A DNA stretch of 64,000 bases. Origin: Setoptus koraiensis. Its lineage: Eukaryota > Animalia > Arthropoda. Shown here piece after piece: positions 13,081 to 59,403 of the stretch; position 1 is the stretch's first letter; each line of letters starts with the position of its first letter. Made by a program: the position numbers and the translations under genes. The notes beneath the pieces were generated by a model, which was given only the letters and a program-made list of their open reading frames with translations, ran no database searches and was not told the origin of the DNA. The stretch lies in NCBI GenBank assembly GCA_048013815.1, contig CM106586.1, forward strand, positions 248,001 to 312,000, in the 5' to 3' direction.

Positions 13081-13519
13081 AACTTCAACGACTCAACTAC
13101 ATCGATAAAGTCGAGCTTTGATGAGTCGGCAAACAGTATCATTATTGTGTCTACCATGCTCATCGCAGTGTTTATCTTCGTTATCACACTTTATTTGAAG
13201 TCGAAATTTATGGAAAAGACAAGAGAAGCTCCCTCCTCCCGGGCGGGAGCGGGCAGCTAAACGTGGAGCGAAATTTCAGTTGTTCCCCCGATCACTACTA
13301 TTGATGTAGTGATGTTGGATCCTTAATGGAGGAGCTACAAGCCTACAACTTTGAGTCACGCCCCCTCCCTAGCACACAGAGAGCTACACACTAGTTGAGA
13401 GTCACTTAAGTCGCTACGCCTCCCTAGCACACAGAAAGCTGCAGCTTGATTGAGACTTAAGTGCTAAAGAATCTAGACATCACAATTTTAAACTCTATGG
13501 AGATCTGAGTCTCTCGATT

Positions 13520-13965
13520 CCCGTGTTCAGAACATTGATAATTTCTCTTATGGATTTCATTTCTCTATTTATCTTGCCAGTCATTGACACGGTTGCATAT
13601 GTTGAGACATACATTGCAGATAATGCAAGTGTTACAGCAGAGATAGCACCACTGTCACGACTTGATCTATAGAGGGAGTTGCTTATTGCTTGAAGTGGTA
13701 TGATGATATTGTGTTCAAAGCTGATTACACGTTTAACTAATGTTTCGTCGATGTATGCAACACATGTTAGATTTTGGAAGCTTTTGGGACATGGGTTAAG
13801 GAAGGAGAACTTGATTTCATAATCGGTATTACCGTCTACCAGAATAATTGGCGTTCTTCTCCATATTACACTGTCTTCGTGATGAGAGGATCCTGTAGTT
13901 GGGTTGACCATGGTGGACAATGCCAGCGTAAGGACGATGTTTTTTCGGCGTGGATAGCAGGCCTT
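13520..13965 (-). pseudogene. Orphan N-terminal fragment of an env-like fusion glycoprotein
   Basis: RRKNIVLTLALSTMV (signal-like), SVIWR, FLNPC, FEHNIIIPLQAI, RSSR followed by a hydrophobic peptide and a heptad; motifs are colinear with the two env proteins at 46.9 and 53.6 kb; cut off by a 60-bp repeat. Confidence 0.7.
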
Positions 13966-14535: not shown

Positions 14536-16479
14536 CAGGGTGTTTGAACTGACCTGATATGTAAGCACTGTGGAAGGTACGTGCCTTCCACAGTGCATTT
14601 TTCAAAGCACTGCGGAAGGCATATAGCACAGCACATCGCACACGGGTATTTATTTTTCTTGCGCAACTATTTTCTCTCTCTCTGTGCACTGCGCCAAGCC
14701 ATTCTTGCGCAACAGCATGCCTTTCGCTTCTCTGGACTGTTGCACTTCCGTTTTAAGCCTCGGCCACACCCTAGTTTCTCCTTCATTCGTTCTTTGTCTT
14801 CGATTATTATACAGCTATTATTACTATTATAATTATCAATTAAAATAAAGAACATTATTGATCAAAATTAATTCATAAGAAAGAAAAAATCATGGCAGCA
14901 TTTATCAATCTATTTATCACCGTCGCTCTCATCATATTTGCGACTGCAGATGGTACAGAGCGCTGGACCAGACCGCAGAAGGCCGAAATGATGTGGGATT
15001 GAGCGAGAGTCAAAGAATACAAAACCTTGCAGACTCTGTACATACAAAAGAAGAATGCCGGTTTAATAGATTAAGGCCTACCGGACTATCAAACTCTGCA
15101 CCGAATTAAAAACAAATTTCTCACCTTCGGCACTTTCGACGATCGTCGCAAAGGAGTGAATTGCGAAATAGAAGCCTCAAAGATTGCTGCAATTAAAGAG
15201 CTGACCAAAGGTGGACTGTACCCATCAAGCATCCGCAAAATCGCCGCTCATCCGTCTGTCAACCTGACTATTTATATGACGCACAAGATGCTGCGAAGAT
15301 GTTTGAAGATGAAGCCATACCGTCCCAGAACACTGCAATACTTGAATGATAAGCAGCAAGAGCGGTTAGAATTTGCAAACAAAATTATTCAACTCGCTGG
15401 AGGGCGAGCCAGTCTCAATCATGATTATTTCAAGAATATAATATTTACCGATGAATCTTGGTTCAGCACGGACGGCTCTATCAACAAGCAGAACACTGTA
15501 TTCTGGTCTCCATCGAACCCAATGCAGGTCTATGAGCGCGAGATGCATGCAGATAAAGTCATGGTCATAGCTTCCATTGGCTTTGACTACAAGAAAGGAC
15601 CATTCTTTTTCAATGGTAGTGTGACTTCTCAAAGTTATCAGGATATGCTCGACGCGCACCTCTTCTCTGACCCATATATTATTAACGGCTTTGCTCAGAA
15701 GAGGCTTATCTTCATGCAGGATGGGGCTGGTCCGCATACATCTCTTTTGAACAGAGAGTACTTGAATGAGAAAACCGGCGGCCGTTGGCTCGGCAAGTAT
15801 CCGCCCTATCTGTGGTGGCCACCATATTCGCCAGACTTAACACCTATGGATTTCTACTTCTGGGGCGTTCTTAAATCAAAAGTTTACACGCATGATAGAC
15901 CATTTCGCGGTAAACTTGATCTGCTGAAGAGAGTAATCATTGAAGAATTCAACACCATGGACCAATTCGAAATCAATAAAGCTTGTGTCAGCGGGTTTGT
16001 CGACCGGATTGTCGAAGTTATACAAAACGAAGGTGGACACATCGCTCATGATGTGGAGAATCGAAGAACCGATCCAGAAGATTATCTCTACCTAGACCCA
16101 ATAGAGAGCCTCAGGATGGGACTGAACACGATCTCGCTGAGCGATGACCCGCCTGAGGAAATAGAATGTGACGATGACGATGATGATTTCGAAGTAATGC
16201 TGAAGAGGCAAGTAAACATTGAAGTCTTCCACAGAATCTCAGAGCTTTTAGAAAAATTCGACAAAGAAGAAGCGAAGCGATTCAACAAATATAGTAATTC
16301 TTCTGTCATTAATTAATATTAATTATTAATATTTTCAATGTAAAAGAGCCCCAATAAATGCACGAAGATGAGCACAGTGACAGTGCGCTCGTCGTGCAAG
16401 CGCGCAAGCGTGCGCGCCCGCATACCCCCTCTGTGCGAAAATTTCTGAGCCAACATATCACATCAGTTCAGACACCCTG
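14536..16479 (+). mobile_element. Tc1/mariner (rosa-like) DNA transposon, full length
   Basis: TA|CAGGGTGTTTGAACTGACCTGATATG ... CATATCACATCAGTTCAGACACCCTG|TA imperfect TIRs with TA duplication. Confidence 0.9.
14892..16316 (+). pseudogene. rosa-like DD42D transposase, 474 codons, two in-frame stops in the N-terminal part
   Basis: FTDES, FMQDGAGPH and WPPYSPDLTPMDFYFWG motifs; the frame extends from ATG 14892 through TGA 15000-15002 and TAA 15072-15074 into the tracked ORF 15156-16316. Confidence 0.9.
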
Positions 16480-24916: not shown

Positions 24917-26777
24917 ATGGGCACACCTCCATCTGTATGTTCGCTCTGACTGATCACAGTCCTGAATTTTCAACTGGTTTTGCTCCCTACTTCTACAGGC
25001 CCCATCCAAACACACTCTATTTGCTCTTATTCTGCTGAGTGTCTCTGTCACATGCGTCGGAGCCGAGCTTCTCCCAAAAGATAAAGCGAGAATCCTCTAC
25101 AATTTCTTCAAACTTGGGGAGAATTTTTGCCAGCTACAGAAACTTTACCAAAACAAAACTTTCGAAGTTGGCCAATTTCCGACGGAACGGAGAACTGTCA
25201 TTGATTGGAAAAAAAATTTTCTCGAGTTTGGCAACGTCAATGCTCCAAGGGGCGGTGCTCGTGAGGAGTTAACAAAAATCACGCCGGAACTTATTGAAAA
25301 AGTTAGAGTGGCCTGCAAAAATGGTACAGTACCAACAAGTACGAGATTGATAGCAGCGGAAGTAGGCCTCAGTAGGTGTACCGTTCACAGAATACTTAGA
25401 TGCAAACTGAAGTTGAAAGGATACCATCCACGCCACCTGCCCCGCCTTTACGGAGCTCAAGAGAAACGTATAGCATTTGCGGAAGCCATCCTTGAACGAG
25501 CGCCCCTTGAAAACGATACTTTCTACGAAAGACTCGTCTTCTCCGACGAGGCTTGGTTCACGACTGGAGGTCACGTGAACAAGCACAACACAGTTTATTA
25601 CGCAGATAAAAACCCGCATCATATTGTGGAGACTGAGTTGCACGCTAAAAAGAAAATGGCCATTGTATTCATCGGTCATTCATTCAGAAGAGGCCCGTTC
25701 TTTTTCGACGAGAATATAAACGCAGATAATTACATAAAAATGCTCCATGAAAAATTCTTTGATAATTCAACGATTCGAACATTCAGAAACCGTCGAAAAA
25801 TTTTCATGCAAGACGGAGCTAAACCGCACTCAGCCTTCAAAACGGTTAACTATTTAAACATGCAAACTGACGGTCAATGGATCGGAATCGGATCCTCCTT
25901 CTTAGAGTGGCCCCCACATTCGCCAGACTTGAACCCCCTCGACTTTTTCCTCTGGGGTCATCTTAAACAGCAAGTTTACCAGCATGGCAGAAGTTTCAGA
26001 GACAACCTGCCGTCTCTCATTAACACAATTGAAAATGAGTTTTGGGATATACTAAGTTTCACGATCGACAAGGCTTGTACGACCGAATTCCATGGTAGAC
26101 TCAAGAAAGTCATCGAACTGAAAGGCGCCGTCGTTTCTCACGCAAGAGAGAATCGAATAACTTCCGAAGATACTTATGCCTTTCTCAATCCAGATTTAGC
26201 TGCACAGCTTGATCCGGAAAATTTGTACGGTATTGATTTCGACCGCCTCTACATTTCGAACCCCCCAGGCACTGTGGTGGAAGACTGGTGCCACTGTAAC
26301 GGAACTTGTCCTAGGTGCTTGGAGCCGCTAGATGATCTTCCGAGCGAACTACGTCCCCTCGATGAACCCTCGCCAGAGAAAAGGCCCCGTCTCGAACGAA
26401 GTGTCGAATTTAGTGATCTTAACGAAACCCAAACATATGGAGACGATGTTGACGAAGTCTGTACGCGCAACTCCACCCAACCCGAAGAAAAGAAGCAAAA
26501 GCGATGCAAAAAATGTCGAAAATGTCGAAGATGTAGGAAGTGTCCGACACAGCGTAAATGTATGAGTTCAAGAGGAGCCACTGCATCGAGGAGGTCACCA
26601 TTTTCTAGATCAAGCTTGATTGCTCGCCTCGCTCTATCTGCCGTTGCCCTTACTCAAAGCCAACACGATGCTTATGAAGAGAGCTATGAGCGAGAAGAGC
26701 TGTTCTCAGACGAACCAAGCACTCATGAAGAGGATGATTATGACTCAAACCACGACCCATGCTGGACGACCCATTAA
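24917..26777 (+). CDS. rosa-like DD42D transposase, predicted two exons (24917-24934, 24999-26777), about 598 aa
   Basis: FSDEA, FMQDGAKPH and WPPHSPDLNPLDFFLWG motifs; stop-free frame from 24966; phase-0 64-nt intron GTATGT...CTGAC...pyrimidine tract...CTACAG links it to ATG 24917. Confidence 0.8.
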
Positions 26778-29558: not shown

Positions 29559-30657
29559 GGGAGTCTTTCCGCTTTCTTTGTATATGTCCACCTATTTACC
29601 GTTGCGCAGTAATGATAATCAGACATCCATTGTCTCGCCTTTGTAGTATTTTCGTCGAAATCTTTCTTCTAGATTGTTGCTCCTCTGGGTCACGTGCACT
29701 TGACCCAGCGATTGTTTCTCCTTCGTCGATTTCTTCTTCATCTTCTACCTCTTCTACGGTTTCCGCATCTTCTTCTGGTGGTGGTACGCTGTTTCTTCGT
29801 AAGGCTTCTATTATTCGTTGCTTATCTTCTCAACTGAGATTTGATCTATTAACCGACTCTATTTGTCGTTGTAGTTCTTGATTGTCACTGTCCAACATCG
29901 AGTCAAAGATGGACAAGCTAATTCACGATTACAACAATAATGGATCCTTAGTTGCAATCAAAGAACAGCTCGTTCCGATAAAGAAGATGTTTGATAACAG
30001 TACAATAACTACCGCTATAACTCACCTCAGAGGCAACATAAAGAAAGTCTTCACCACGATCGAATACACTATAGAAATAGGTATTGTGATCTTTTCAATA
30101 ATATTACTTATTATTTTTGTACACGGGGAGTTGTAGCGCTCAAATAAAGCGCCAACACATATAGCGCGCACTCGCCGCGCTACGGCCGTGCATGGTGCCG
30201 TTAACACCACGCAGCACGGCCAGGCGCGACAAGTGCGCGCCTCAGGCTAAAGACATGTAAATGGGCAATTCTGCTGACCTCAGCAGAATGCCCCTATAAA
30301 TAAAGCCACCACTGATCGACAAAGATCAGTCGTGATCAGACCTACTCCGAGACAACATCTCAAACAGATCATATCCCTTATACAAGTGCAATGAACGGAC
30401 AAACGAGGGTATCTCGGGGTAGTTCTATATCTGAAAAAGTACTTGTACTTGCTAGGATTCGAACCTAGACACTTGAATATACGTTTCAATGCTCTGCCAG
30501 TTAAGCTACAAGTCGGTTCCTTTATTAGTGTAGACTATGTCCCTTATATGCATACCCTGTCCGTTACACAAGCACACAGCGCGTGACTCTAAAGATCGAA
30601 AACTGTGAATATCCACAAATAGATCGGTACGTGGATATTCACTGGCATACAAAGTCG

Positions 30658-34602: not shown

Positions 34603-35018
34603 TGTTAAGATATGTGTCGAAATATAGGCCTAACCATCTATGGTGAAAGTCCATAGATGGGTAGGTAATAAAATTAGTAGACCTAGCTACGAGGTCGAAT
34701 GTAGGGCGAAAGTGTAATAAAAATTAGAGTGCTAAAGAGAGAGAGAGGGAGAGTTAGAGAAGGAGAAAGAGAGTGAAGGAGAGAGAGAGAAAGCAATAGA
34801 ACTGAGTCGAAAAAGAAAAATAGTTAGTTGAAAAAGAGTCGTCGATGCGAGTAGATGAAAAACATAACAAATAAATAAATCAACAAAAAGATAACAAGTC
34901 TCATAGTTTAAATAGCCAACATTTAATATGGGGGTCCGGCAAAAGAACCCAATCAGTTAAGTTAATCAAATAAATTAAATTAATAAGAAGAAATACACTT
35001 CGTATCTTAGTTGGCGGG

Positions 35019-36302
35019 GTGGTTGTGTTGAAAATCTTAAAAAGTACATCAAAAGCAAAGACTACAAAGGAATCACGGTGGATAACCGAAGAAATCTTGG
35101 ACTGCAGCCGAAATTTCCTAAAGTACCACCTGAAGAGACCTTTGACGTTCAAGTTTAGGTTAACAGGCAAGTATCAATCTTGTATGGCAGAATTAGAACG
35201 TGATCAGAGAGATAGAATAATCAAAGAGTTCAACAGCTACCTCCTAGAAGTCGAAACTATAGTCAGCGACACGATTATAAGTAAAGCGGGACGTGACCGG
35301 TTACTTGTCGTGCTAGACAAGATCTACAGCATCTATAGACAAGCCTTCACAATCTCGGAAGAATATCTCCAAAAGAAGAATAAGAAAGTACTGAAACCCG
35401 AAAATATACGGCAATATTGCGAGGATATTGCTCGGAGTAAGACGGCTGGTGTACCGACAACGCTATTAATCAAGAATCACATAAGCAGTGTAATAGCGAG
35501 AATATATTACGATTTTAACGTTCCGATATTTTCGGCCGTATCTAAGAAGAAACTTATTGGTCAATTTGTATTAATCGACGCGAAAAAGTTTGTTCTGTTC
35601 AATATAAGAGAAGGCTCAGAACCAGCCCCTGTAGAACCTATCGAAAACATAGAAGGCGACGAAGATCAACTCAACGAGACAGCCAGAGGTGCTTTTAACC
35701 AGTATGAAGAACAAAACCCTATCTTGTCTGGATCAAATCTAACGGTGCGATCAAGTGAACCCAGAGAGCTAGGGCAATCATCAAACACTGCGTCGGAAGC
35801 TAGTTTAATTGCGGATAGAGAGCACAGATTAACGACTTCCGACAGCGCGTACGAGTCGAGGCATAATATATCTACCCAAGTAATAGAAGAAGAAAGTGAT
35901 TCAGACAACGACGAAGAATTTGACGCAACGATAATCGATAGCGGCACGGAGAAATCGATACCGCAAGCACAAACTCCAATAAAAGAATCGCAGGTAGAGG
36001 AAATCACAGAGGCATCGCCAACGGAACAAGCTACCGAGACACCGCAAGCGGAAGAAGAGTTAGCTTTGAACGATTCAGTCGAATAGCAACCATCATTATT
36101 GGAATTTAGCTTCCGAACCTTCGAGAACTCAAAGGACGAAGAGGAATTAATAGAACAAGTCATGGGCGATAGATCGGCCGCCGAAGAAGACCGGAACTTG
36201 TCTAAGAAGAAACCACCAACATTCGACGGGGTGTCAAACGCTCGTAGTTGGTGGAAGGAATACGGGCAGATGTGGCCACGCTCCAGGTTAACATCTAGAT
36301 AA
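35019..36302 (+). CDS. ORF1 (355 aa, unknown, acidic tail) in frame, via one TAG, with a gag-like segment
   Basis: 36099 is in frame with 35019; PPTFDGVSNARSWWKEY resembles the start of a gypsy capsid. Confidence 0.55.
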
Positions 36303-43977: not shown

Positions 43978-45679
43978 TTGTCTGACCTCACGAAAAAGAA
44001 CGCACAATTCACCTGGGGTGAACGTGAAAAAGAAAGCTTTAATAGTATTAAACAAGGGCTATTAGAAAGCAAGGCCATAGCATATTTTAGGCAAGGTTGC
44101 CCATTAATCCTAAAGACAGACGCATCGCGCAAAGGATTTGCGGCGATACTGCTACAACTGCAGGACGGCGATTGGCGCATAGTAGCGACAGCCAGCAGAC
44201 GGATTTCAACAGGCGAATCAAATGTGAGTGTGACCGAACTAGAAGGAGCGGCGTTAATATACGCATGAATTAAATTCAGACAATTTGTCTACGGATAGAG
44301 AGTGAAAGTAATAGTTGACCATTGTGCTCTCTGCACACTGGGGAAAACCAAACCACTAGAAGGAAGATTAGCTCGCTGGGCTTTAGCCCTATCAGAATTT
44401 TATTTGGATATAGTTTATAGATCTGGAAGACAGCACGCGGACGTTGACTGTTTGTCACGTCAACCTGTGGCTGACCACGACGACAAACTAGACGAGACGA
44501 GATTTATTTTTGCACTAATCCCGTTGGAAGATTACAGATCCAAGTACGATACAGACGAAGAATGCAAAACAGCATTGCAAAAGATTAAACGAGAAGAAAA
44601 CACATTTAAACTAACTAACGGATACATTTATAAAGACAATCGCTTATTAGTACCAACAGAATACAGGAACACATTAATAGACGACATTCATGCACAAGGC
44701 CACGCCGGAGTAAACCAAACAGTAGACCTGGTTCAACGCAAATATTACTGGGCCAGTCTTAAAGACGACATACAAAAGAGAGTAGCAGCCTGCATGACTT
44801 GTCAGAGACATAAAATACCAAGAGAACGTCCAAGCGGATTAATGCATTCATTTGAAAGTCACATGCCATTTGAAGTGATAAGTATGGATCACCTAGGACC
44901 AATGGATGCGACAAGCAAAGGCAATAAGCATGTTCTAGTTGCAATTGACACATTCAGCAAATTTATTATTGCAGCCCCAACTAAATCCACGTGCGCAGAA
45001 GAGGTAGTTAAATTTATCATCAACAATATCATAGCGATACACGGCGTGCCAAATACTTTATTTTCCGATAACGCAAGCGGATTCACCGCAAACCTGACCA
45101 AACAGGTAGTAGAAGCTTTCGGTATAGAGCTTAACCATTCCACTCCATACCACCATAGAGGTAACTCAATTGTGGAACGATCAATACAAACCCTAAAAGA
45201 TAAGATTGCCATTTCCATGGCAGACGCCGACAACACTGAATGGGATGATCATATTGGAATGGTATGTTTAGCCATCAATGCCACGAAACATTCATCGACA
45301 AAATTTAGTCCTTATGAAGTACTATTTGGTAGAAAATTGCGACTACCGAGAGAGGCTAAGGAGGTGTCAGCAGAAACAGAAGTTTATACAGAGTCCCTAC
45401 AAGCAAAATTAGAGCTTATTAGAAGGAACGTAGCAGAAAGCATCCATTCGAGCAACGAGCTATCAAAACAATATTACGACGCGAAGAGGAAGGAAAAGAA
45501 ATTCAGCATTGGTGACGAAGTAATGGTTCACTTCGAGCCAAAGAACGACGCAAAACCGAATAAGCTATCAAGCAACTATCGCGGACCATACGAGGTCATT
45601 GACACGAAGCCTCATGACATCTATAAATTAGAACTGATCGATTCCAAAAAGAAGAAGAAGATAATACTTGCTCACGTTT
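43978..45679 (+). pseudogene. pol: Ty3/gypsy pol: RNase H and integrase (continues at 46725 after the MITE)
   Basis: TDAS and ELEG in RNase H; H..GHAG...C..C zinc finger; ISMDHLGP, SDNA and VERS integrase core; GPY motif; two in-frame stops near 44266-44298. Confidence 0.93.
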
Positions 45680-46717
45680 GGTTGTTGTAGCGAATAGCGA
45701 CCCGCCCCGATTTTGGTGAAACTTCCGGTACGGGTACTTCTTGACCCCAATAGACCGGAAAAGTTGGTCCGGAAGTGCGGAAACTTCCGGTTCCGGTTTT
45801 ACATAAAGTTAAAGATAGAGCTCCGAAATTCACCAGAGAGACGTTTCAAGCTACGCTGAACACGATAAAATAATATTCAGCTCTCTGCAACTTCCGGTTG
45901 TCTAGAAATAGAGATATTACAAGGGTTTGAAGACCGGAAGTGACCGAATTATTGCTTCGCTGCGCTCGGGGATGAACATGCGATGGGTCTGAAAACTCGG
46001 CCTGCGGCCTCGTATTCTGGAGGCCGTCACATCTCCGTCGTCGCTCCCGCGACGACTGCGTGCGACGGGAACCCTTCGGGTAGGGTTGATGAGCGCTTCG
46101 GGTATCGGGCTACGCCCTCTACCCTCCGCTCAGGTGACTGCAATCCACACAGGAATGAAGGTGAAAGAACGAACTGGAGACATGTTTTTGGCACAGAAAA
46201 AAGGCTGTGCCAGCTTGTGTGATAAATTGCATGAGCCTCTAAGCGCACGAATTCATTCAGGCGCGTGTTATACAACATGGCATATCCCATACAAACTCCT
46301 CCCTGTGCGCTCGACGCTACGCCGTCGCCTATTTAAGGCGAGCGCACAGGGAGTAATGGATTCATTCCTGTATCCAGCTACAAATAGAGCATATCTTATA
46401 TATAAAATAACACTACCCGCAATTGCTTATTTCATAACACGCGCGGATAGTTCGTCCCGTCGACGCCCTCTCAGCAGTTTTAACCAAATATCTCGTGAAC
46501 CGGAAGTCGTACAGACTTGAAATAGACATGATCGCATTCCGCATGCACAGTTTCAGTTATCTAGTGAGTTTCAAATCTGTATCTCAATGTTTTTGTAAAA
46601 CCGGAACCGGAAGTTTCCGCACTTCCGGACCACTCAAACTGTTGTCAGGGAGCCCCACGGGCTCCATGTGTAAAGTTTCATCGAAATCTGACTGGGTCGC
46701 TATTCGCTACAACACCC
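45680..46717 (+). mobile_element. Merlin-type MITE inserted in the integrase C-terminus
   Basis: CACGTTT duplicated on both sides (7 matching bases; 8 with one mismatch); removal restores AHVSRLKPY. Confidence 0.92.
46266..46439. mobile_element. 174-bp solo LTR nested in the MITE
   Basis: TGTTAT...ATAACA termini; CGCG 4-bp TSD; absent from the sister MITE copy (empty site at ~33215). Confidence 0.85.
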
Positions 46718-46924
46718 CACGTTTCACGTCTTAAACCATACAAACGTAACGGAGACGAGTCACCCGAACTCGAACGCGTAGTGATTGACCTAGACGAAGA
46801 TATTGATACAGAGGTTAATCAACCTGAAGATACTGATGATCACCAGCATCCGGAGGCAACAAACACAAGAACAGAACAACCACGAACCAGTAGACGAAAA
46901 AAAAATTTTAGACCAACTAACTAC

Positions 46925-48631
46925 ATGAATCTAGTAGCCTCACTGTTGCTCATGACAGCAACCATGAGCAATGGGATTGCATTTGTACCAACTGAATCAG
47001 TCATATGGCAAGAGAGTGTCATAGATGCAGTCAACAAACTGACCCACTATTCCTTAGAGCTACTCGTCGTCAATCCGTGTGACCACTTATTCACAAATAT
47101 CACAGGAAACAAAGTAATTGACGATAATATGATCGACCATTGTAGAACCAAATTCAACGAACAAGTTAAGACACCATTGCAGAGCTTTTGTACAAAATCA
47201 ACGATACCAGAAGATTCACTAAGCAGAGATAAAAGACTGATAGGAGATCTGATAGCAATCGGTATATCATCTACATCGCTCGTCATGGTTAACGATATAA
47301 GAAAACACGATCTACCTTATGTAAAGGATTCGATAAACCAAGTAAGGGAAGTCATCGATAAACAAATGAAATCAGTAGACTTCCTAATCGAAGAATTGAA
47401 AACTGCCAGAGAAGAGCTCCTACAGGAACACCAAACGAACGCCGCAAATGAAGCCGAGCTGTCAGACAGTATTGAACAAGTAAAGACCGATTTGGAGGCA
47501 AGCAGCGAAGCATCATACGTGATGGCTAATGTATTACAGAAGATGAACAGCATGGAATACAACATGCAAGTAGCAAAAGACGCCTGGTTCGATGACAAAA
47601 TAGTGAGAAAAGAGTTATTCGCGTTGATGAACGCACAATCGCACTTCAGCAATGATATTAAGAGGCATGGAAGACCAAGAACATGCAAAGTGCTAGGAAC
47701 CAAATTGCTACTATCATTTACCGCATTCAGGAAGGACAGCACATCATCAGTACTCGAGGCGAATGCCTTTGATCATTTTAACGGTGCAAAAGACAATTTA
47801 TGCACAATGCGATACACCGCACCGACACTTGTTTTAGTGAACGCGTCTACCGACTGTTACAAAGAACTCACCCGTTCTGACATGCAGGTAGGAAACACAA
47901 TTATGACTACATGCATCAAAGAAGAGCCTATTAAACCCCCGGCATGGATCAAAGGGGAATGCATGAACAGAAGCAGCCGTATCGACTTTTACAAAGTGAT
48001 AACAAAAGACGGCTTTAACCATATCTATTGTTACCCATACACCATCAAAACTGATGAAGGAGAAGACAATTGCCCGGCATACCCATTTAAATTGCCAGAT
48101 GATGTGTCTTTCACGACCAACACACACGCTTATATCAGCGAGAGAAAGGAGATAAAGGACGTATGGGACATTAAAATATCAACGGCGAAAATAAATCACA
48201 GACTGAAAACCCAATTCGCACCTTTCATTATAGAACCAATTAACAATGCGAAATTCAAGGACACCTTTCAGATGTTACAAAAACCAGTTGAGTGGATTAA
48301 GGAAGGGCGTTGGAACAACACACTACAGAGCTTCAATCTAGAATTTATTCCCAGTCTTGATTGGATAACAGGCCCTACGAAGTACGTAATTTACGGCGTA
48401 ACGGTAATAGGAATCCTATTCATCATCTCCTTTACTATGCCGATGATTAGACTTTGCACATGGATACTAAGAAGAGCGTACGCACCAATTCTGGCGATAA
48501 TATCGATAGCAAGGATGACTATACGACGTTGTTTTGTTCGACACCAATTACCCATGTATACATCGAACAAACAATCCTTTTATAAGAATCTAACTAGAAC
48601 CTCGCAAACGAAAACGTATCGTTTGTTATAA
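46925..48631 (+). CDS. env: Env-like type I membrane fusion glycoprotein of the gypsy element
   Basis: Signal-like MNLVASLLLMTATMSNG; RDKR at 47225-47236 followed by a hydrophobic peptide; heptad region; Cys-rich ectodomain with N-x-S/T sites; TM YVIYGVTVIGILFIISF; tail ends YRLL. Confidence 0.85.
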   Translation: MNLVASLLLMTATMSNGIAFVPTESVIWQESVIDAVNKLTHYSLELLVVNPCDHLFTNITGNKVIDDNMIDHCRTKFNEQVKTPLQSFCTKSTIPEDSLSRDKRLIGDLIAIGISSTSLVMVNDIRKHDLPYVKDSINQVREVIDKQMKSVDFLIEELKTAREELLQEHQTNAANEAELSDSIEQVKTDLEASSEASYVMANVLQKMNSMEYNMQVAKDAWFDDKIVRKELFALMNAQSHFSNDIKRHGRPRTCKVLGTKLLLSFTAFRKDSTSSVLEANAFDHFNGAKDNLCTMRYTAPTLVLVNASTDCYKELTRSDMQVGNTIMTTCIKEEPIKPPAWIKGECMNRSSRIDFYKVITKDGFNHIYCYPYTIKTDEGEDNCPAYPFKLPDDVSFTTNTHAYISERKEIKDVWDIKISTAKINHRLKTQFAPFIIEPINNAKFKDTFQMLQKPVEWIKEGRWNNTLQSFNLEFIPSLDWITGPTKYVIYGVTVIGILFIISFTMPMIRLCTWILRRAYAPILAIISIARMTIRRCFVRHQLPMYTSNKQSFYKNLTRTSQTKTYRLL

Positions 48632-49650: not shown

Positions 49651-49829
49651 AAAATTTGTAGTATGCAATGCACTTGAGTATCCTGCCCGTTTTCTCTCCT
49701 TTGCTGACGACAAGGACGGGCATACAATCATTCAACAGGTCTGTAATGATGCGTCTAAATGTTATAGTAAGACCGCAATAGCTAAATGGGATCGCGATTG
49801 TTACTCTGTGTTGCTACTATGGTGGCTAC

Positions 49830-50260
49830 TCTTATATTTCAGATAAGCGAGCACCAAGTAGCAACAAACACTACTGGAGATGCAGTTTGAGCCATAAGCC
49901 CTTTAATTGTCAGGGTCGAATGACCACTGAGATGGTCCGTGGAGCAACGGCAACACAGATGGCCAAACATAAAATTATTAGAAGTGGCAGAGGCAAGCCA
50001 CACAACCATCCTCCATCACCAACGGTGAGAGCGAGAAAGGATACATTGGCGAGTTTGAAAGCTCGAGCAGGTACCTCTCAAGACAAGCCAGCTAACATGA
50101 TATTGAATGTCCAGAGAACACTGAGTGTTGACGCTGGAACAGGTCTGCCATCTCAAGATGCCCTGAGGAGGCAGATCAAGCGTGCGCGACGCGCCAATCA
50201 ATTGATTGAACCTCAATCTTTGGATCAAATCGATCTACCGGATGAGTTGAAAATCACTCT
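49830..50260 (+). pseudogene. MULE-type transposase N-terminal fragment (FLYWCH-like)
   Basis: HYWRCSLSHKPFNCQGRMTT...HNH, followed by LPSQDALRRQIKRARR. Confidence 0.65.
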
Positions 50261-50722
50261 GAGAACGACATCTACTCAAGAGAATGTGCCGACCCCAAAA
50301 TTTGGGGCAAACACACGCGAAGAATATTTGACAACGTCATAGATCGTATGCAAATGAAATGGGTCACGCCAGGATATCGCATCACACAAATTTTAACTGA
50401 TCATGGTTATTTTAATAACATGCTATGCAAACAGGAATTCGTAAGATATCCATATTGTGAAAAATGTGCCAGTAACAACATAAGAGCACTTGATAACGCC
50501 GAACACTACGTCTTCGAATGTCAAGCTTATCACAATGATAGGGGAATCTTAAACGAATACATCATTCCAAAAGCGTATAGAACGCTAAAGGAAATAGTTG
50601 CTGACAGAGCGGCATACTACAGGTTGAAAAGATTTATTCACAAAAACAACAAACTAGATTGGATAGAAAATTCAAGGATATCCATGCTGGCAATAGATGA
50701 TCCGATCAACCATAATGATTAA
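50260..50722 (+). pseudogene. R1-like non-LTR retrotransposon ORF2 C-terminal fragment
   Basis: ITQILTDHGYF...CEKC...DNAEHYVFEC CCHC knuckle; an upstream LSFADD remnant near 49700. Confidence 0.7.
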
Positions 50723-50987: not shown

Positions 50988-51136
50988 TGTTGTATTTTTA
51001 TATTACTTAGATGTTTATTCTATCGTATCTAAAACTCTACTACTACAATAATAATAATAACAAATCTGTTACATATGACAATATATATGAACATACAAAA
51101 GCGGCATTGCGCATGACTAATGGACGTATCTCAATA
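50988..51136 (-). repeat. Putative 3' LTR (~149 bp) of the copia element
   Basis: Minus strand GAGTGGGAG PPT (51137-51145), then TATTGAG...AATAAA...ATACAACA. Confidence 0.6.
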
Positions 51137-51157
51137 CTCCCACTCGTCCATTAAATT

Positions 51158-53614
51158 CTATGTAAGCGAAACGTATGATGGTCCAGGTTGAGACATGGGG
51201 TGTTCTTCAGAAAGACGACACACTCCGATTTCGATGAAACTCAACAAATGGGCCCCGAAGGGGCCCCTGAGGACAAATTGAGTGGTCCGGAAGTGCGGAA
51301 ATTTCTACTTCCGGAGATATAGAAAATGCATTTTCCGGGCCTCAGACCTAAAATTTCTGTATGATTGTCTAGATCCACATGCTATCTATGCGATAGCGTT
51401 AAGATAAATCCTCTACATCAACTCGTTCGCGAGATATTCTACAATAAGCGCAAGTCACACTTCCGGTTTTAAAACTGATTCGGCTGTACTACCAACTAGT
51501 TACGGTCTCTAAAGCAAGTTCACACCCTATATAGAAGAAACCCGGCCCGATCACGGGCCCCGCTCATTCGACTCCCAGTCCTCGGGAAGAATCTTTTTCA
51601 GTTAGGTGGCCGTCAGTCGTCCCGCCGGAGGCCGCAGGCCGTAGGCGTGGACGACTGGAGGCCGAACCCTTTCTCCGGCCCGGGCCAAAGATGCATGTCA
51701 GACGGTAGGGCTATTGCCTTGAACCCTGGCCCTGAACCATTATTAGTAGGAGTCCTGGCCGAGGCTAGGACTTTAGGCTTCGCCTGGGGTGTTACTCTTT
51801 TCCGGTAGTACAGATTATGACCTTAGTACCCCACCCGATGTCCGTGCGGGTGAGAACGGCCGACTATACCGTCAATATGCCCTCAAATACCCTAAAATAC
51901 CCTAAAATACCCAGTATGCGGTACCTCGGGTATCTCGGGTACGGGAAATTTCCGCACTTCCGGAATACCCATTCCGGTATCAGGGCATCATATTCTACCC
52001 GATAATACCCAAAATACCCAAATCGGGGTGTGTCGTCTTTCTAAAGAAGCCCCGAGACATGTTTGATCCATATATCTCTGAGTGACATTGCTGCGGCGGA
52101 GGTGGCAAATTAGTTAAGGGTACAGATTCAGCTTTCTTCTTTAGACAATATTTAGTTCTACAATAATATATTATTGAGCTGATCAGTACAATAATGAAGC
52201 AGGTCAGGACAGAACCCAAAGATATCAATATAATATTATTGTTCTGTTTTAAATATTGCACTTGTAGACCTGGTTCACTCAGTTCGACCAAACCAGGGTC
52301 TAACTTACTCACAACTCTCTGTAATTCAGCGATTTTTGTTAGAAAATCTGCAGATGTCTCTAAATGCTTGTCTCTAGTCCAGGCAGCTGTTATGTTTTCT
52401 GATAGTATGTCACTCGATGCCGATACATCTATTGCTTCTGATATGGCATTGGACGAGTCTTCTCCTAATTTCCAAGAAACATCTAATGGTAATTTGAAAA
52501 CGAAAGGTGGACACTTGTGATCCTTACCATTGATATTTATAATGCTGTTGAAACAATAGAAATACGTATGTGTTTTCGTCAGTTTGATCTCATGTGACTT
52601 TCCTATGTGATTTATATCCATCTGACAGGAGTGTGTTGTCCAATCGTTTGCACCTGTCATGAACTGATGATTTGTTTCCTCGCATCTAGTTACCTGATAC
52701 CGATCAACAGCTAAAGTTCTAATTGGTAACGTGCAATTAGCAGTGATATTGTGCACAACATTCTTAGTGCCGGTGTATTCCTTGATGCATGGTGAGCCTG
52801 TAAGGTTGGCATAGATTTTAAACGGATCGGCCTGCAGAATAAAAGTGTTTTTGTCGGTTATCCGGGTGACAAATCGAAGGTGGACCACTCCTGGCTTAAT
52901 AACATGGCATTTTCCTGCATTGGAAGATAGAGGGTCGATGTCACGGAGATCATCGATCATTAAAAATTCACCTAACTCTGGTCCTACTCTGTAGGTCTTC
53001 CATGCAAATTCGACTTGTCTGAGCAGATGTCCTTTCTCTTTGATATCATTTAGTATGGCTGCTGACATCCAAGCTTGCTGTGGAAATGAAATTGCCATGT
53101 CATGTATTTTCTGGGTATTGGAAGTGACTTGTCGAGATATTATCTTGAGTGCATCTGTATGTGCTCTCTGAACCATATAGATCTGATTGGCATGATTGGT
53201 TAATTTTGCAGATTCTTTTTCAACCCTTTCTATTCTTTCTTTCTCGGATGGGTCTTTTGTCACAAACCATCCTCGGACTGTTTCGACTAAACTTGTGACA
53301 ACATATTCGGAAACCATGCCTGCAGCGAATTCTAATTGTCTTTTATCGCGATTGTGTAGATTGCACATATTATTCAGAGGTACGATGATTTCTTCGTCAA
53401 AAAGTCGTTGACACTCATTGTAAACATCGATGTTGTATGCTGCGTTTGGCGTGTTTAGGTTCAAACAAGGCGATTTGACTGCCATTGTTATGTCCCAAAC
53501 TTTCATTCCCAATGGAATTACTTTGTCTGTCTTTCTCCATAAGATATCGGATTCTTGTTTCAATATCTGACTCGATGTCATGGTAACTATTGATAATGGT
53601 GCTATAATACTCAT
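51158..53614 (-). CDS. env: Env-like fusion glycoprotein fused in frame to copia RNase H (MITE in the tail)
   Basis: Hydrophobic ILMSIIAPLSIVTMTSS directly after ADMFTKPL; RDKR at 53339-53350; heptad; Cys-rich ectodomain; TM IILISLGSVLTCFIIVLISSIIYYC; restored end NMSQPGPSYVSLT-stop. Confidence 0.85.
51198..52053. mobile_element. Merlin-type MITE, family 2, complete, in the env cytoplasmic tail
   Basis: TIRs GGGTGTTCTTCAGAAAGACGACAC / GTGTCGTCTTTCTAAAGAAGCCCC; 8-bp TSD GAGACATG. Confidence 0.92.
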
Positions 53615-56600
53615 GAGAATGTTTCTCAATGAAAGGAATTTTGTTTTCGGTAATGGCTTAGTGAACATGTCAGCCAATTGATTTTCTGTGCCAATATATT
53701 CAATTTTGATATCTTCCATCTTCTTTGACTCAATGATGAATTTATATTTTATGTCTATATGTTTGATTTTTGTGCTTATGATCTGATTATCGATGATCTT
53801 TATTGCTGCTTGGTTGTCAATGAATATGTTTGCTGACTGAATTGGATTCTTCAATTCAGTTAATATTTGCTTCAACCAAATTGTCTCTTTTATCGAATGA
53901 CAAGCAGCCACTAGTTCTGATTCAGTTGTCGACAAGGATACTGTAGGTTGGCGTTGACTCTTCCATATAATAGGAGAGTCATTTATCAGACATATTATAC
54001 CAGACGTGGATTTCCTGCTTTCATCATTAGCATAGTCTGCGTCTGAGTAAGTATTTATTGTCAAGGCGTTTATGTTTCTTGAGACTCCTTTTTTATATGT
54101 GATGCCCAATTTAGATGTTCCCTTTAAGTAGCGAAATACTCGCTTGACAGCGACCCAATGTGCATGAGTATGGCAGTGATTAGCTCGACTCAAATATCCT
54201 ACGACAAAAGCCAAATCAGGACGAGTTGCGATCATTGTATACATGAGAGCTCCCACTGCTTCACGGTATGGAACTTTTTCATCAGCGACAGCGTCTTCTT
54301 TGATTTCTATGTACTCACTAATTGGAGTTGCGATACTGTTGCACCCAGACATTCCAAATCTGCTGATGATCTTATTTATGAAGTTTTCTTGCGAAAGAGT
54401 GATCTTGTCATTGCTAATATTTATGTCAAGGCCTAAAAAATAAGTTGCACTCAGCACACGAACTTCAAACTCTTTCTCAAGCTCCATTTGTATCTTCTTC
54501 AAACTTGAGACGCTTGTCGAAGCTAGTAGTATATCATCTACATAGACTGCGATGATTGTGAAGTTCGTGTCTGATCTCTCAAAAAACACACAAGGATCAT
54601 TTTTTTAGTTTAGTCAATTTGTTACTGACTAGAAACCTTGTGAATCTGTCATTCCATTGTTTCGGTGCTTGCTTGAGCCCATAAAGGCTCTTTTTCAACA
54701 AATAAACATCGTTTGGTTTACCAACATGAAACCCTTCTGCTTGTTCCATGTATATGGTTTCTTCTAACTCTCCATACAAAAAAGCAGTTTTTACATCATA
54801 CTGCTTGAGAAACATATTGTAATTTGCAATTAATGTGAACAGCAGGCGGATCGTTTCAATTTTTACTACGGGCGCATATGTTTCTAGATAGTCAATGCCG
54901 TATACTTGAGTGTACCCTTTCGCAACTAGACGCGCCTTGTAGCGCTCTACTTCACCACTTGATGTCTTTTTGACCTTGTAGATCCAGCGACATTTCACTG
55001 CTTTCTGAGATGTTGGTCGACTAACGATGGTCCACACATTGTTTTTATGTAGTGATGACATTTCTTCCTTCATTGCAGTGATCCATTCTGCTCTATTTGA
55101 ACTACTCATGGCACCATCGTATGTAGATGGCTCATTTTCTAGCGTCATTGCCTCATATGCGGCATGTGCACAGTAAGCTCTGCCACTATACGGTAATGAC
55201 AGAGACTCTGATGGTCCTTGGCTGCGTAACTGCATGGATCGTGGCTGATTCGTGGTATTTTCAGCTTCTTGATTTGGAGCCACTGTTTCGATTGAGCTAC
55301 TAAATGATTCATTTGATTCATGTTCGATTTGCTCTAACGAAGACGAATCCAGATTACTATTGAGGCATGAAGTATCGTCGAGTGGTACTGTAGCCACTTC
55401 GCTGTCATTGCCAAGAGTTTGGTCTTCAGAGTTAGTTGACGATGAAACTTCTTCTTCTATGAATATAACGTCTCTTGATGTTTTGATTGACTTCGAGTGA
55501 GGAAAGTAAATTCTATACGTATTATATCTATCAGTGTAACCAACCAAGATCCCAGGTTCCGACCTTGGCTCCCACGCCTTCAAAGACTGATCTGCAATTT
55601 TAAGATAAGCTCGACATCCATAGACTCGCAAATTAGTAACGCTAGGTTTCTGACCATGGAATAATTCATAAGGCGTAACTGACGGATTTCTTGAAGAAAT
55701 CGAACGATTGAGCAAATACACTGCTGTGTTACAGGCTTCTGCCCACAGAAATTGTGGCAACTTTGCACCAATAAGCATAGTTCTGGCTAATTCTTTTACA
55801 CTACGGTTCTCTCTTTCGACTTTACCATTTTGCTCAGGTAAATATGGTGCTGAATATGTCTTATGAATACCTTTTTCATTTAAATATTCGATGAAATTAC
55901 CATTTTCAAACTCTGTACCATGGTCACTATGAAGACATGTGACTTTCTTAGATGAGTACTCGATTTCTGCTACTACCTCTTTAAATACAGATAGCACTTC
56001 TTTCTTGCTTCTGATGAATTTAATGAATCGATAATTTGTATATTCATCAACTAGGAGGACGAAGTAATTGGCTTTTCCTAGAGACTCAACGGACATAGGG
56101 CCACATGTATCTGCATGCAGTTTTCCAAAGCTTTTTGCGCGATCATGGAAGGACTGTTTGTAGCTGACCTTATGATGTTTTCCGATGATACACGTTTCAC
56201 AAGTATTGTTTTCTTTTCCACTGAGGCTTAGTCCTACTACGACATCATTACTTGCCATTTTCGAAAGTCGTTCTTTATTTATATGTCCAAATCTCGAGTG
56301 CCAAGTGGACATACTAACAGAAATATTAGCTTCTCCTTTGATTATTTTCAAATTCAGACGATAGAGATTTTGGTGCATATCACCGGTTACAACCTCTATG
56401 TTATTTTTGTAAATGTAGCATCTTTTTCCTTCGAATATCGTTTTACTACCATGTTCATTGGTATAAGGAACTGAAAACAAATTTGCTCCCAATTCTGGCA
56501 CATGAAGAACGCGCTCCAAGACGAATTTCATAGATGGATTATCGGATCGTTCACATTTTATGCTACCGACCCCAATTGCTGAGATGATTCTGTTTCCACC

Positions 56601-57593
56601 GACTGTGACTTGGATTGGTTCGTTTAATGACTCGTATGTACTGAAGTATGTTTTCTCACATGACATGTGTTCTGTGGCACCACTATCAATGATGAAATCA
56701 GTGCCCGAATTTGTGAAGTTTGCCACTGCAATTAATGCGATTGAGTCATTGCTTTGATTCGTTGAAGATTGTGAATTGTTCTTTTTGCTTTCATTATAGA
56801 TTCGTTTTCTACACTCTGAAATCCAGTGCCCTTTCTTTTTACAATAATTGCACGGAAAACGAGATTTTTTGTTGTTATTTGCAGGCGAATTGCTCTCATT
56901 CTTTGATTGTTTTGGTGGATTCGAATGATGGTTCTTATTATCTTGCTGATGGCTTCGTCTAAAATTCGATGCTTGTTTCGAAGTCGACGCTGTTAGAGCT
57001 TCAGATTTTGAATTTTTGTTCGATCGATTCATTTCAAAGAGTGACTCTTCAAGGAGCAGCCTCGGACTTAATTCATTCATTGTTCGTAGAATTTTCTGAT
57101 CATTGTGCCAACCTGAGATGAAGTTTCTGTACGTGTCACCAAGAGTGTTGACAATTCTTGAGACCATGATTCTCTCATTCATTGGCTCTCCGAGACTTTT
57201 CAATTTGTTGCATAACAATTCAACTTTCGAGATATGTGTAGACATGTCGTCTTTTTCTGATTTTTTGTATGAATATAACTGCTCTCGGAGCATATCTAAT
57301 TGACACTCGCTGTTTTGGTCATAATAACTTTCTAATCGTCTCCAGCATTCAAATGAGGTTCTGCAAGTTGAAACTTTGTCCACCAGATTGAAATCGATGG
57401 ACGTTAATAAAAGGCCGAGTACTTTTGCGTCTACTTCGTCGTAGGCAGCTTTTCTAGCTTGATCGAGACCCGATCCATCGGTTTCGAGTACTAGATACCA
57501 ATTTCTGGCCTTTAGGACGGCATAGACGATAGTTTTCCATGTTGCGAACTTTTCACCCTTAAACACGGGTACCTTTACTTTTGATTCGGCCAT
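53615..57593 (-). CDS. pol: Ty1/copia gag-pol (gag, CCHC, protease, integrase, RT, RNase H) with one +1 homopolymer frameshift at ~54600
   Basis: CNYCKKKGHWISEC, IDSGATEHM, WHSRFGH, SDHGTE, YKARLVAKGY, YVDD, YSDADYA; copia domain order; deleting one A from the A7 run restores KNDPCVF. Confidence 0.96.
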
Positions 57594-57600
57594 AGCGTGT

Positions 57601-57614
57601 CAGGACCCATAACC
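57601..57614 (-). promoter_or_regulatory. Copia primer-binding site (initiator tRNA-Met half-molecule type)
   Basis: Minus strand GGTTATGGGTCCTG, close to the GGTTATGGGCCCAG PBS of Drosophila copia. Confidence 0.8.
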
Positions 57615-57738
57615 TTTTAGTATTTTAATAATAGTTGTTTATTTAATGATTACATAGTCACACTACTGATACAATAGTTACAAACAATATAAATGTAATA
57701 AATGATATCTATGATGTTTATTTTATGGATTCACAAAC

Positions 57739-58210
57739 GATACTGACTCGGATTGGCAGTGCTGCCCCCTTATATAGGGGAAGGTGCAGCACTGCCAAGG
57801 GCAGACCCTAGGTGGGTCGCAGGCTCCACTGCAGCTCCTCTATTGAGGAGTAGAGGCTGTAGTGGAGCCTGTTACAAGCGTTTGGGGGACTCTACAGAGT
57901 GACTTTAAGGCCACTCCGTGGAGTCTTCATTATAGTCGATTAGCTGTTGTTGCTTGTTGTTGCTGCTGCTGCTGCTACAGCTGCCTTTAGTGTGAGGAGG
58001 CCGCGCGTGAGGAGAGGAGAGACTGAGGATTGGCCTTAGTCTCTACTGGCTGTAGCAGTCGATGCCTTGTGAAAGGCTCCACTACAGATCCCACTCTTAA
58101 AGAATGGATCTGTAGTGGAGCCTGCGACCCCTCCTGGGTCTGCCCTTGGCAGTGCATTGCCGACCCCTATATAAAGGGCTGCACTGCCAAGGGCTAGTCA
58201 GTCTTGTATC
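57739..58210. mobile_element. GC-rich fold-back element
   Basis: Inverted arms (TTGGCAGTGC..., GGGTCGCAGGCTCCACT... versus their reverse complements) around a short spacer; no TSD identified. Confidence 0.65.
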
Positions 58211-58710
58211 AGAAAGCAACAAATAAACAATTTTCATTACATTCAACCAGTAGGATAAAGATCCGCGCGATTATTCACAAGCACACACCTCGCGCCTAGA
58301 GCGCACACAAACACATTGTACACAAGCACATTGCTCACAAGCACACAGCACGTGAGTCAACACAAACACAGTACACAAACACCAAAAGTCACACAAGCAC
58401 ACGGTGCACACAGCACACAAATGTTAGTACAATAACACCCGACAGAGGGCCAAAACAATCACAATCAACGCAAATCAAGTGCGTCAACCCATATAAAGGG
58501 CGAGCAGATTGCAAGACAAATGCACACAGTCGCCCATCAATAGAAGATCAATACAGCAAAGTCCACTCAAATCAGACTCTATCATTACAGAACCACTGTA
58601 ACAGCTAGGAGTCTAGTCAAATCAACAAGTTCTATCATTGCAATAGTAGTGCTATTGCAACATCCAGGAACATCAAACCCACAGCAAACCAGCACCCTTC
58701 AAGTTCAATC

Positions 58711-59403
58711 ATGGCACGAAGAAGGAACAGTCGACGCGAAAGCCCAAGTGCTTCGCCAGCAATTGGTAACAATGAGGAGCCAACTCCTCCAATCACTACT
58801 CACCACCGAATGGCATCGCCGGTACGGGCCAATCCATACCAGCAACATCCGCTCTCAAACAGCAAGGGTATGGTCCATTACAATGGACTCGACAAGCCCG
58901 TGAGTGCAAGAGCCTGGATGCACATGTTCGAGCGTCATGCTAGACGCCTCCACTGTGAGGACGAAGACAAGATGCTCTACGTCGACTGCTTCTTGGATGG
59001 TGACGCTATAACCTGGTATAGTCACGAATGTGAACGCTTCGAAAACATGGAGTGGGAGGACTTCAAAGAAGAGTTCTACCAACGCTTTGACAGCAGCATC
59101 TCCGAACCGTTCACACAGTTCGTCGATTTCCGGTTCACCAAGGAGATGACTGTCAAGCACTACTATGAGGAAATGAAACGGCTAAGCGGCCCAATTGGTT
59201 TGAAGACCTGCTTCCTCATAGAAGCACTCACTCGCGGACTACCAATGAGTTACCGGATGCAACTCAAGTCCGCAAGACCAACCACAACTGGTCAGTGGTT
59301 GGACTTTGCGCAATCTCTAGAACGCGAGTTCCAGAAACAGCAAGTCCGGAAGGTATCTACAGGGTACTCTTCACCAGCGCATTGCCTACGGCGCAATCGA
59401 TAA
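58711..59403 (+). pseudogene. gag: Ty3/gypsy-type gag fragment (capsid region), no pol
   Basis: ARAWMHMFE...FLDGDAITWY...WEDFKEEFYQRF retrotransposon gag pattern. Confidence 0.8.

Follow-up and report, generated by a model that had tools for sequence, protein, structure and literature searches.

The Pseudoviridae, to which the Ty1/copia retrotransposons belong, are described by the international virus taxonomy committee (ICTV) as forming intracellular, non-infectious particles without an extracellular phase, and an envelope gene (env) is named only for the plant sireviruses, where it is the third open reading frame (ORF) (PMC8515867). PMC2829016 and PMC5408684 treat the function of the Sirevirus env as unproven. 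In animals, an env of the viral fusion (F) protein type is widespread among Ty3/gypsy elements, as surveyed by Chary and Hayashi (PMC13524379) with gypsy baits and with all elements classed as Ty3/gypsy. That survey concludes that env has recombined infrequently, recounts that Drosophila gypsy passes from the ovarian soma to the germline, and cites Malik 2000 and others for env-like ORFs in Ty1/copia-like elements. No description of an animal copia element with an F-type env was found in the literature searched, which left out supplements, Repbase and subscription journals, and none occurs in the accessible portions of PMC6563192, PMC8672886, PMC2774666, PMC12440569 and PMC3601003. The element described here is a Ty1/copia element on the minus strand of a 64,000-nucleotide stretch of DNA from Setoptus koraiensis (GenBank assembly GCA_048013815.1, contig CM106586.1, positions 248,001 to 312,000; this whole stretch is referred to as the window, and coordinates count from its first letter). 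An initial annotation of this DNA had stated that env-like ORFs in copia are known mainly from plant sireviruses, and the ICTV description agrees with that statement. The copy in the window is defective, and its gag-pol frame runs into an env predicted to encode an F-like class I fusogen. On balance it is probable that this env came from gypsy elements and that it carries enveloped particles of intact relatives from cell to cell.

One long gag-pol frame that ends in env, the layout of the window element, is also found in BEL/Pao elements such as roo. An env of roo is named in PMC13524379. BEL/Pao pol has the integrase after reverse transcriptase (RT) and RNase H, unlike that of the window. In the window element, as in the sireviruses, an env-like region is encoded between a copia-type pol and the 3′ long terminal repeat (LTR) (PMC8515867 and PMC2829016). 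However, the Sirevirus env is a third ORF of plant elements that follows a stop or a linker, whereas the window env is in frame with no stop, as in 36 relatives. Sirevirus LTRs average 1.28 kb and are accompanied by several identical polypurine tracts (PPTs) in the linker (PMC2829016), in contrast to one 149-bp LTR sequence and one PPT in the window, and the Sirevirus env is of unproven function whereas the window env has a recognizable viral fusion fold in its structural model. The hemiviruses, including Drosophila copia, are similar in their single gag-pol frame, copia domain order and short LTR, but the described hemiviruses have no env and their particles are intracellular (PMC8515867). 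Env-bearing Ty3/gypsy elements (errantiviruses in the wide sense) feature an F-like env with a signal peptide, furin site, fusion peptide and transmembrane (TM) segment (PMC13524379), and the nearest non-copia relatives of the window env are fused to gypsy integrase C-termini. In contrast, errantivirus and Ty3/gypsy pol has an RVT_1 domain and an integrase after RNase H, whereas the window pol has an RVT_2 domain and an integrase before RT. The rotifer TelKA elements (PMC5408684) and the lokiretroviruses (PMC13524379) also carry a paramyxovirus-F-like class I env, but it accompanies a gypsy-type or retrovirus-like pol and, in TelKA, is a separate ORF3. By its pol the element is a copia element, and it is neither a sirevirus nor an errantivirus.

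Organization of the element

ORF reading and Pfam matches determined that the domain order is gag, protease, integrase, RT and RNase H, followed by env, in two overlapping frames of the minus strand. The first frame (54597-57599, ATG at 57593) encodes, over 54597..57593, a copia-type gag, a CCHC zinc knuckle (56852), a protease with a DSG motif (56693), a GAG-pre-integrase domain, the integrase core, an SH3 domain and the N-terminal part of RT, and its Pfam matches are, in order, PF14223, PF22936, PF13976, PF00665, PF25597 and PF07727. The second frame (51995-54604) contains the C-terminal part of RT (YVDD at 54544) and RNase H (YSDAD at 54049 and ADMFTKPL at 53674) over 53621..54604, which were identified by these motifs and an RVT_2 match (E 9e-17), and then env. 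The two frames overlap at a homopolymer run (54600-54606), where the reading frame is broken within RT. The copia-type gag and RT, the order protease, integrase, RT, RNase H and the PPT upstream of the 3′ LTR are all those of the Pseudoviridae.

The env encodes 519 amino acids and is entered from RNase H without an intervening stop. Its main part (52062..53614) begins at Met 53614 with an internal signal-like hydrophobic segment, which is followed by a furin-type RDKR site (53339..53350), an apolar fusion-peptide-like stretch, a predicted 77-residue HRA-like helix (52997..53227, model residues 130-206), a Cys-rich region, a TM segment (about 52169..52237, with 19-residue hydropathy up to 2.76) and a proline-rich tail. 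This is the arrangement that the initial annotation had reported, beginning where copia RNase H ends. The basic cleavage site, the apolar stretch and the heptad-type helix, the last taken from the model, are features of F-type fusion proteins, as are the signal segment and the single C-terminal TM segment, which were recognized by hydropathy alone.

The end of the env cytoplasmic tail (51158..51189), with the motif YVSL and a stop at 51158-51160, is severed from the remainder by a non-coding element with terminal inverted repeats (TIR element, 51198-52053) that was inserted with an 8-bp target duplication (51190-51197 and 52054-52061), so that the insertion as a whole spans 51190..52061. The YVSL motif assigned earlier to the env tail can be read in the DNA, but it is not part of the product of this copy because the env frame terminates inside the inserted element. 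With the RT break and the insertion repaired, a single gag-to-env frame of 5571 nt (1856 amino acids) had been reported, and the spans given above sum to about 1,850 codons, which supports that length by arithmetic only. The stop lies 21 nt from the LTR, and the single PPT (51137..51149), read from the sequence, adjoins the 3′ LTR (50988..51136), which is 149 bp long and ends TA...CA (TATTG...CAACA). At the opposite end, the primer binding site (PBS, 57599..57614) directly follows the LTR end and presumably resembles the internal tRNA-iMet site used by Drosophila copia. The 5′ LTR position is taken by a diverged LTR-like stretch (57615..57714) that another TIR element (about 57715-58229) interrupts; the junction of this stretch is unseen in the sequencing runs discussed below.

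Relatives carrying the same env

An HMMER search with env returned 403 proteins at E values up to 0.001, and the counts of env matches given here rest on the best 150 of these 403. A previous word-index search had found four relatives and, when aimed at longer proteins, none, which the HMMER result shows to be a false negative. Of 152 env matches examined, 36 continue a copia RNase H and 22 a gypsy pol in one protein; the other 94 are either fragments or envs by themselves. Relatives P0001 and P0002 feature copia RNase H and env in a single frame, with env 53-55% and RT/RNase H 62-70% identical to the window, values that indicate that env is not decaying much faster than pol. P0004 joins a gypsy integrase end to env. 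All 16 long env matches tested with Pfam are whole copia polyproteins of 1,912-2,125 amino acids, of which 14 have the integrase core at E values up to 0.01. A search with integrase-RT, which is independent of env, identified env by profile in 12 of the best 120 proteins, and nine of these 12 are whole; of the remainder, 87 end within 150 residues of RNase H, 11 have long tails without env and 10 fall short of the RNase H end. Together, the 16 polyproteins from the env search and nine from the pol search give at least 25 unbroken gag-pol-env polyproteins (1,887-2,125 amino acids), each with a hydrophobic segment near its C-terminus. The initial annotation held that its reading would fail if other copies lacked env; other copia elements with the env in frame are found by both routes. 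A metagenome scan with the env alignment returned no loci, and one with P0026 returned seven loci, none of which is matched by the env profile.

The motifs of the env are kept to different degrees. A strongly hydrophobic 12-mer lies within 75 residues of the RNase H end motif in 49 of 51 env-bearing proteins; these segments often have a basic start and a small-residue end, and many are of textbook signal-peptide shape. A dibasic site is present at the aligned position in 44 of 47 copia-linked envs, with R-X-[KR]-R in 29 of them. The tail motif is more variable. Only 18 of 46 copia-linked envs have YxxPhi among their final 45 residues, and the YxxL motif is thus not a hallmark of the family as had been suggested, although YxxPhi is retained in P0001 and P0003, the nearest tailed relatives, whose tails both end in YLTI.

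Predicted structure of Env

A model of the unbroken ectodomain was built from a 106-row alignment and has a pLDDT of 82.3 and a pTM of 0.72. Its core is rich in beta structure, and the 77-residue helix follows the cleavage site. Foldseek comparison with the PDB gave post-fusion RSV F as the best match (E 7e-8) and 92 matches at E 0.001, and all 41 of the matches listed are paramyxovirus or pneumovirus F proteins. VIA-align ranked NDV F first (Z 8.6, 312 residues aligned, rmsd 15.4), and its top eight consist of six F proteins and two foamy-virus Env chains. Matches in BFVD are baculovirus F, glycoproteins of arthropod mononegaviruses and an unnamed abalone herpesvirus protein, while the Atlas gives Baculo_F/Fusion_gly at 0.96 for env, with a top cluster that is mostly arthropod. 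The predicted fold of the env is that of a paramyxovirus/pneumovirus-type class I F protein. The comparison of the ectodomain with class I fusion proteins that the initial annotation had proposed thus points, at the level of the model, to viral fusogens rather than to an unrelated fold.

Origin of env

The first 175 residues of env are 53-57% identical to P0001/P0002, 44% identical to the gypsy-linked P0011 and 39% to P0006, and 18-28% identical to the other copia-linked envs tested. The trees were built from rows chosen after fast trees and contain no named reference elements. A 20-row mixture-model env tree places the window clade (99/97) inside a group (100/99) that includes five gypsy-linked envs. 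In a 45-row env tree the copia or gypsy label changes nine times among 44 labelled rows, six of these changes being forced by starred branches, and a tree forced to keep 20 copia-linked envs as one group apart from 10 gypsy-linked ones was rejected (p-AU 8.7e-13). The copia envs are not one clade, and env has therefore moved between the superfamilies repeatedly; exchange between copia and gypsy is well supported. The single lineage envisaged earlier is not supported for this env, which was exchanged with gypsy elements more than once. The same interleaving differs from the infrequent env recombination concluded in the survey of F-type envs (PMC13524379), and this movement across superfamilies qualifies the view that the F-type env has mostly co-diverged with gypsy pol.

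The copia side of the exchange was examined with an RT-RNase H tree of 54 rows out of 140 (26 with env and 28 without, 328 residues), in which the env label changes four times. A single clade of env-bearing copias was rejected (p-AU 0.017), while the starred branches of this tree force only one change. Repeated gain of env by copia, in the direction from gypsy to copia, is likely. Transfer in the other direction is possible for P0051, which Pfam identifies as a whole gypsy polyprotein and whose env groups with the copia-linked P0017 and P0056 (96/94).

Integrity of the copy

Six sequencing runs from four studies share at least half of the sampled words, and five of them, X1-X5, were compared with the window. 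X1 may be the source of the assembly, X1, X3 and X4 represent one sample, and the variants of X2 are nearly those of X1, which leaves X5 as the clearest independent witness. The RNase H-env junction is bridged by contigs in all five runs. The RT break at 54600-54606 is crossed without a gap by contigs of X1 and X2 that are identical to the window there. The homopolymer varies in length only in X4, at depth 13 of 174, and in a single X5 contig whose depth is 2.9 and which may be an error. The frame break in RT is not an error of the window only. A programmed frameshift as a family feature was considered, as the break recurs in main contigs of both X1 and X2 and P0002 begins nearby, and was rejected on the basis of the 25 relatives that are unbroken through RT. 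The insertion in the tail is missing from some copies in all four runs examined (joint 51189-52054).

The LTRs of the window are unlike each other, which raised the question of old age or domestication. This explanation was rejected, since in the contigs one and the same LTR stands at either end, and over 5.6 kb the copies are listed with only 28 single-base differences between them. The copies are young yet mostly damaged. The 5′ end of the window element is suspect, with a diverged LTR-like stretch at the exact PBS boundary. This stretch (57615-57714) is about 65% like the 3′ LTR over 100 nt, which is the best value of 1660 window stretches and was equalled in none of 500 shuffles. In all five runs the PBS continues into 3′-LTR sequence for 28-70 letters, and no contig spans the whole element. 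The stretch suggests a sister copia family, combined with a wrong join during assembly or with recombination among relatives.

Several further observations concern the ends of the element. The exact 3′ LTR stretch is covered by one 149-nt X1 contig with no difference, at a depth of 315 compared with 124 for the flank, and this contig agrees that the LTR begins with TA rather than TG. X5 contains two unlike flanks past the LTR start, which hint at more than one insertion site. One X1 contig (depth 75) joins 52058 and 57908 on opposite strands. Across the window there are dozens of partial matches to the TIR family of 51198-52053, whose depth is very high in every run and which is abundant in the genome.

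Proposed function of Env and alternative explanations

By analogy, it is proposed that the element works like an env-bearing gypsy element. Env begins in frame within the last RNase H residues, where no stop is possible, and Pol would therefore always be made as a Gag-Pol-signal-Env chain. Internal signals in polyproteins are known from alphaviruses and flaviviruses. The hydrophobic segment after RNase H may act as such an internal signal peptide, and signal peptidase would free Env into the endoplasmic reticulum as a type I membrane protein. Gag-Pol would stay in the cytosol, briefly anchored by the signal segment, and would be matured by the protease of the element. A furin-like protease could then cut the dibasic site and free the fusion peptide, and the Env trimers that budded particles bear would bring about fusion with neighboring, probably germline, cells, as for Drosophila gypsy. 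The Met at the junction may yield extra Env from a shorter RNA. The window copy would be unable to carry out these steps unaided. Dozens of relatives share the layout, and a copia family thought to be intracellular therefore likely has members that would move between cells like retroviruses. With a copia group that bears a recognizable viral fusogen, the transition from retrotransposon to retrovirus would reach the most distant LTR superfamily, and such a group would be a testable case of whether a copia capsid can be enveloped. An obligatory Gag-Pol-signal-Env chain also raises the questions of how the cell uses a signal that lies 1,300 residues into a polyprotein and of whether this signal provides the membrane targeting that copia Gag is not known to have. 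A wider proposal is held tentatively, at a little less than an even chance: that at least four invertebrate copia lineages took F-type fusogens from gypsy, and gave some back, wired them as an alphavirus-style internal-signal polyprotein and spread as enveloped particles, forming a first infectious group of Pseudoviridae that is not in print.

A number of points weigh against the proposal that the F-like env serves transfer between cells in this family. The window copy itself is defective, being broken in RT and in the tail, and potential infectivity is not supported for this copy. Loose ends of a further TIR-element insertion with an 8-bp overlap were found in X2, X3 and X5 at 55444-55451, in the integrase-RT linker, where the window has none; copies of the element differ by independent insertions. 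In the model, residues 92-135 are unreliable and the fusion-peptide region has a pLDDT under 50, the whole-chain TM-scores are about 0.3 with large rmsd, and the Atlas recognition (1755) is under its trust level. No Pfam env family matches the window env or any of the 23 relative proteins scanned, and in the profile search by sequence viral F comes up only at E 3e-4, behind a designed coiled coil. The signal segment of the window is short and contains a Pro. A hydrophobic segment is found in none of 64 env-less copias, which is a weak control because these proteins mostly end 15-29 residues past the RNase H end motif, about 20 residues after it. The inner nesting that gives the gypsy-to-copia direction has support of only 86/81 and 87/89. 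The fused forms were sought among called proteins, so that the 94 stand-alone matches would conceal any copia element whose env is a separate ORF.

Four other explanations were considered. Env could be made mainly alone, from a spliced or internally started RNA beginning at the Met near the RNase H end, with the fused frame a way of packing two genes; this is compatible with the polyprotein route but, as the main source of Env, rather doubtful. At offset 14 past the motif that ends RNase H, 30 of 51 env-bearing proteins have this Met, compared with 1 of 65 env-less ones (37 of which have Gly there), and the Met is found there in two clades with different env origins. Splicing, readthrough or an internal promoter is considered to supply the RNA for the env of sireviruses and plant gypsy elements (PMC2829016). 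However, the hydrophobic segment is not preceded by a Met in five of the 51, among them the near relative P0001. In 15 of the 65 env-less proteins a Met stands one residue later, at offset 15, and kinship among the proteins, which are not independent, inflates the contrast. Additionally, no good splice acceptor was found near the env start, the best ranking 115 of 396 by a crude score, and Pol would still need to be cut from Env. A single ancient gain of env in copia, with its scatter explained by losses and later ectodomain swaps with gypsy, is unlikely. The junction is at the same RNase H position in the clade of the window and in the largest clade, and only one change is forced in the RT-RNase H tree, but that tree needs four changes and rejects one clade among its 54 rows; moreover, the other clades are joined through linkers of 25-55 residues and the nearest gypsy envs differ from clade to clade.

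The env might also have been kept for a use other than entry, such as fusing or reshaping host cells, blocking superinfection or anchoring Gag-Pol to membranes. Copia Gag is not known to have a membrane-binding domain, and the particles of pseudovirids are intracellular and non-infectious according to the ICTV (PMC8515867). Such a use is quite improbable when set against the retention of all the entry parts together, namely the cleavage site, apolar peptide, long helix, Cys framework and TM segment, and against the service of the same env family in env-bearing gypsy elements, seen among the matches and in the env tree above and in PMC13524379. A single accidental joining of copia with a gypsy env, as a chimera or by misassembly, could have been expected from a scaffolded, repeat-rich window in which a gypsy env lies 3.4 kb away and the 5′ LTR junction is unseen in the runs. 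It is refuted, with a negligible chance remaining, by the bridged RNase H-env junction in five of five runs, by the identity of only 21% to the neighboring gypsy env, by the same fusion in P0001 and P0002 at 53-55% identity and by the 25 or more unbroken polyproteins.

Neighboring features

The window contains other elements of the same env family. A gypsy element on the plus strand (44299-48631) consists of an integrase (44299-45690; Pfam H2C2, rve and SH3_Tf2-1) and an F-type env frame (46568-48631) with an RDKR site and a TM segment. This env matches the copia env at E 3e-8, and TIR-family sequence lies between its integrase and env. A third, fragmentary env of the family is located on the minus strand at 13507-13938 (profile E 8e-11). 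Two DDE_3 (Tc1-like) transposases, a FLYWCH fragment and a Ty3-type gag were identified at 15075-16316, 24966-26777, 49782-50342 and 58609-59403. The FLYWCH fragment, the Tc1-like transposases and the gypsy neighbors with F-type env point to an invertebrate host, and no host gene was found in the ORFs scanned. A plus-strand frame of 370 amino acids (34974-36086) has an acidic C-terminal half and no Pfam or Atlas match. ARAGORN identified a tRNA-Tyr(GTA) gene on the minus strand at 30444-30515.

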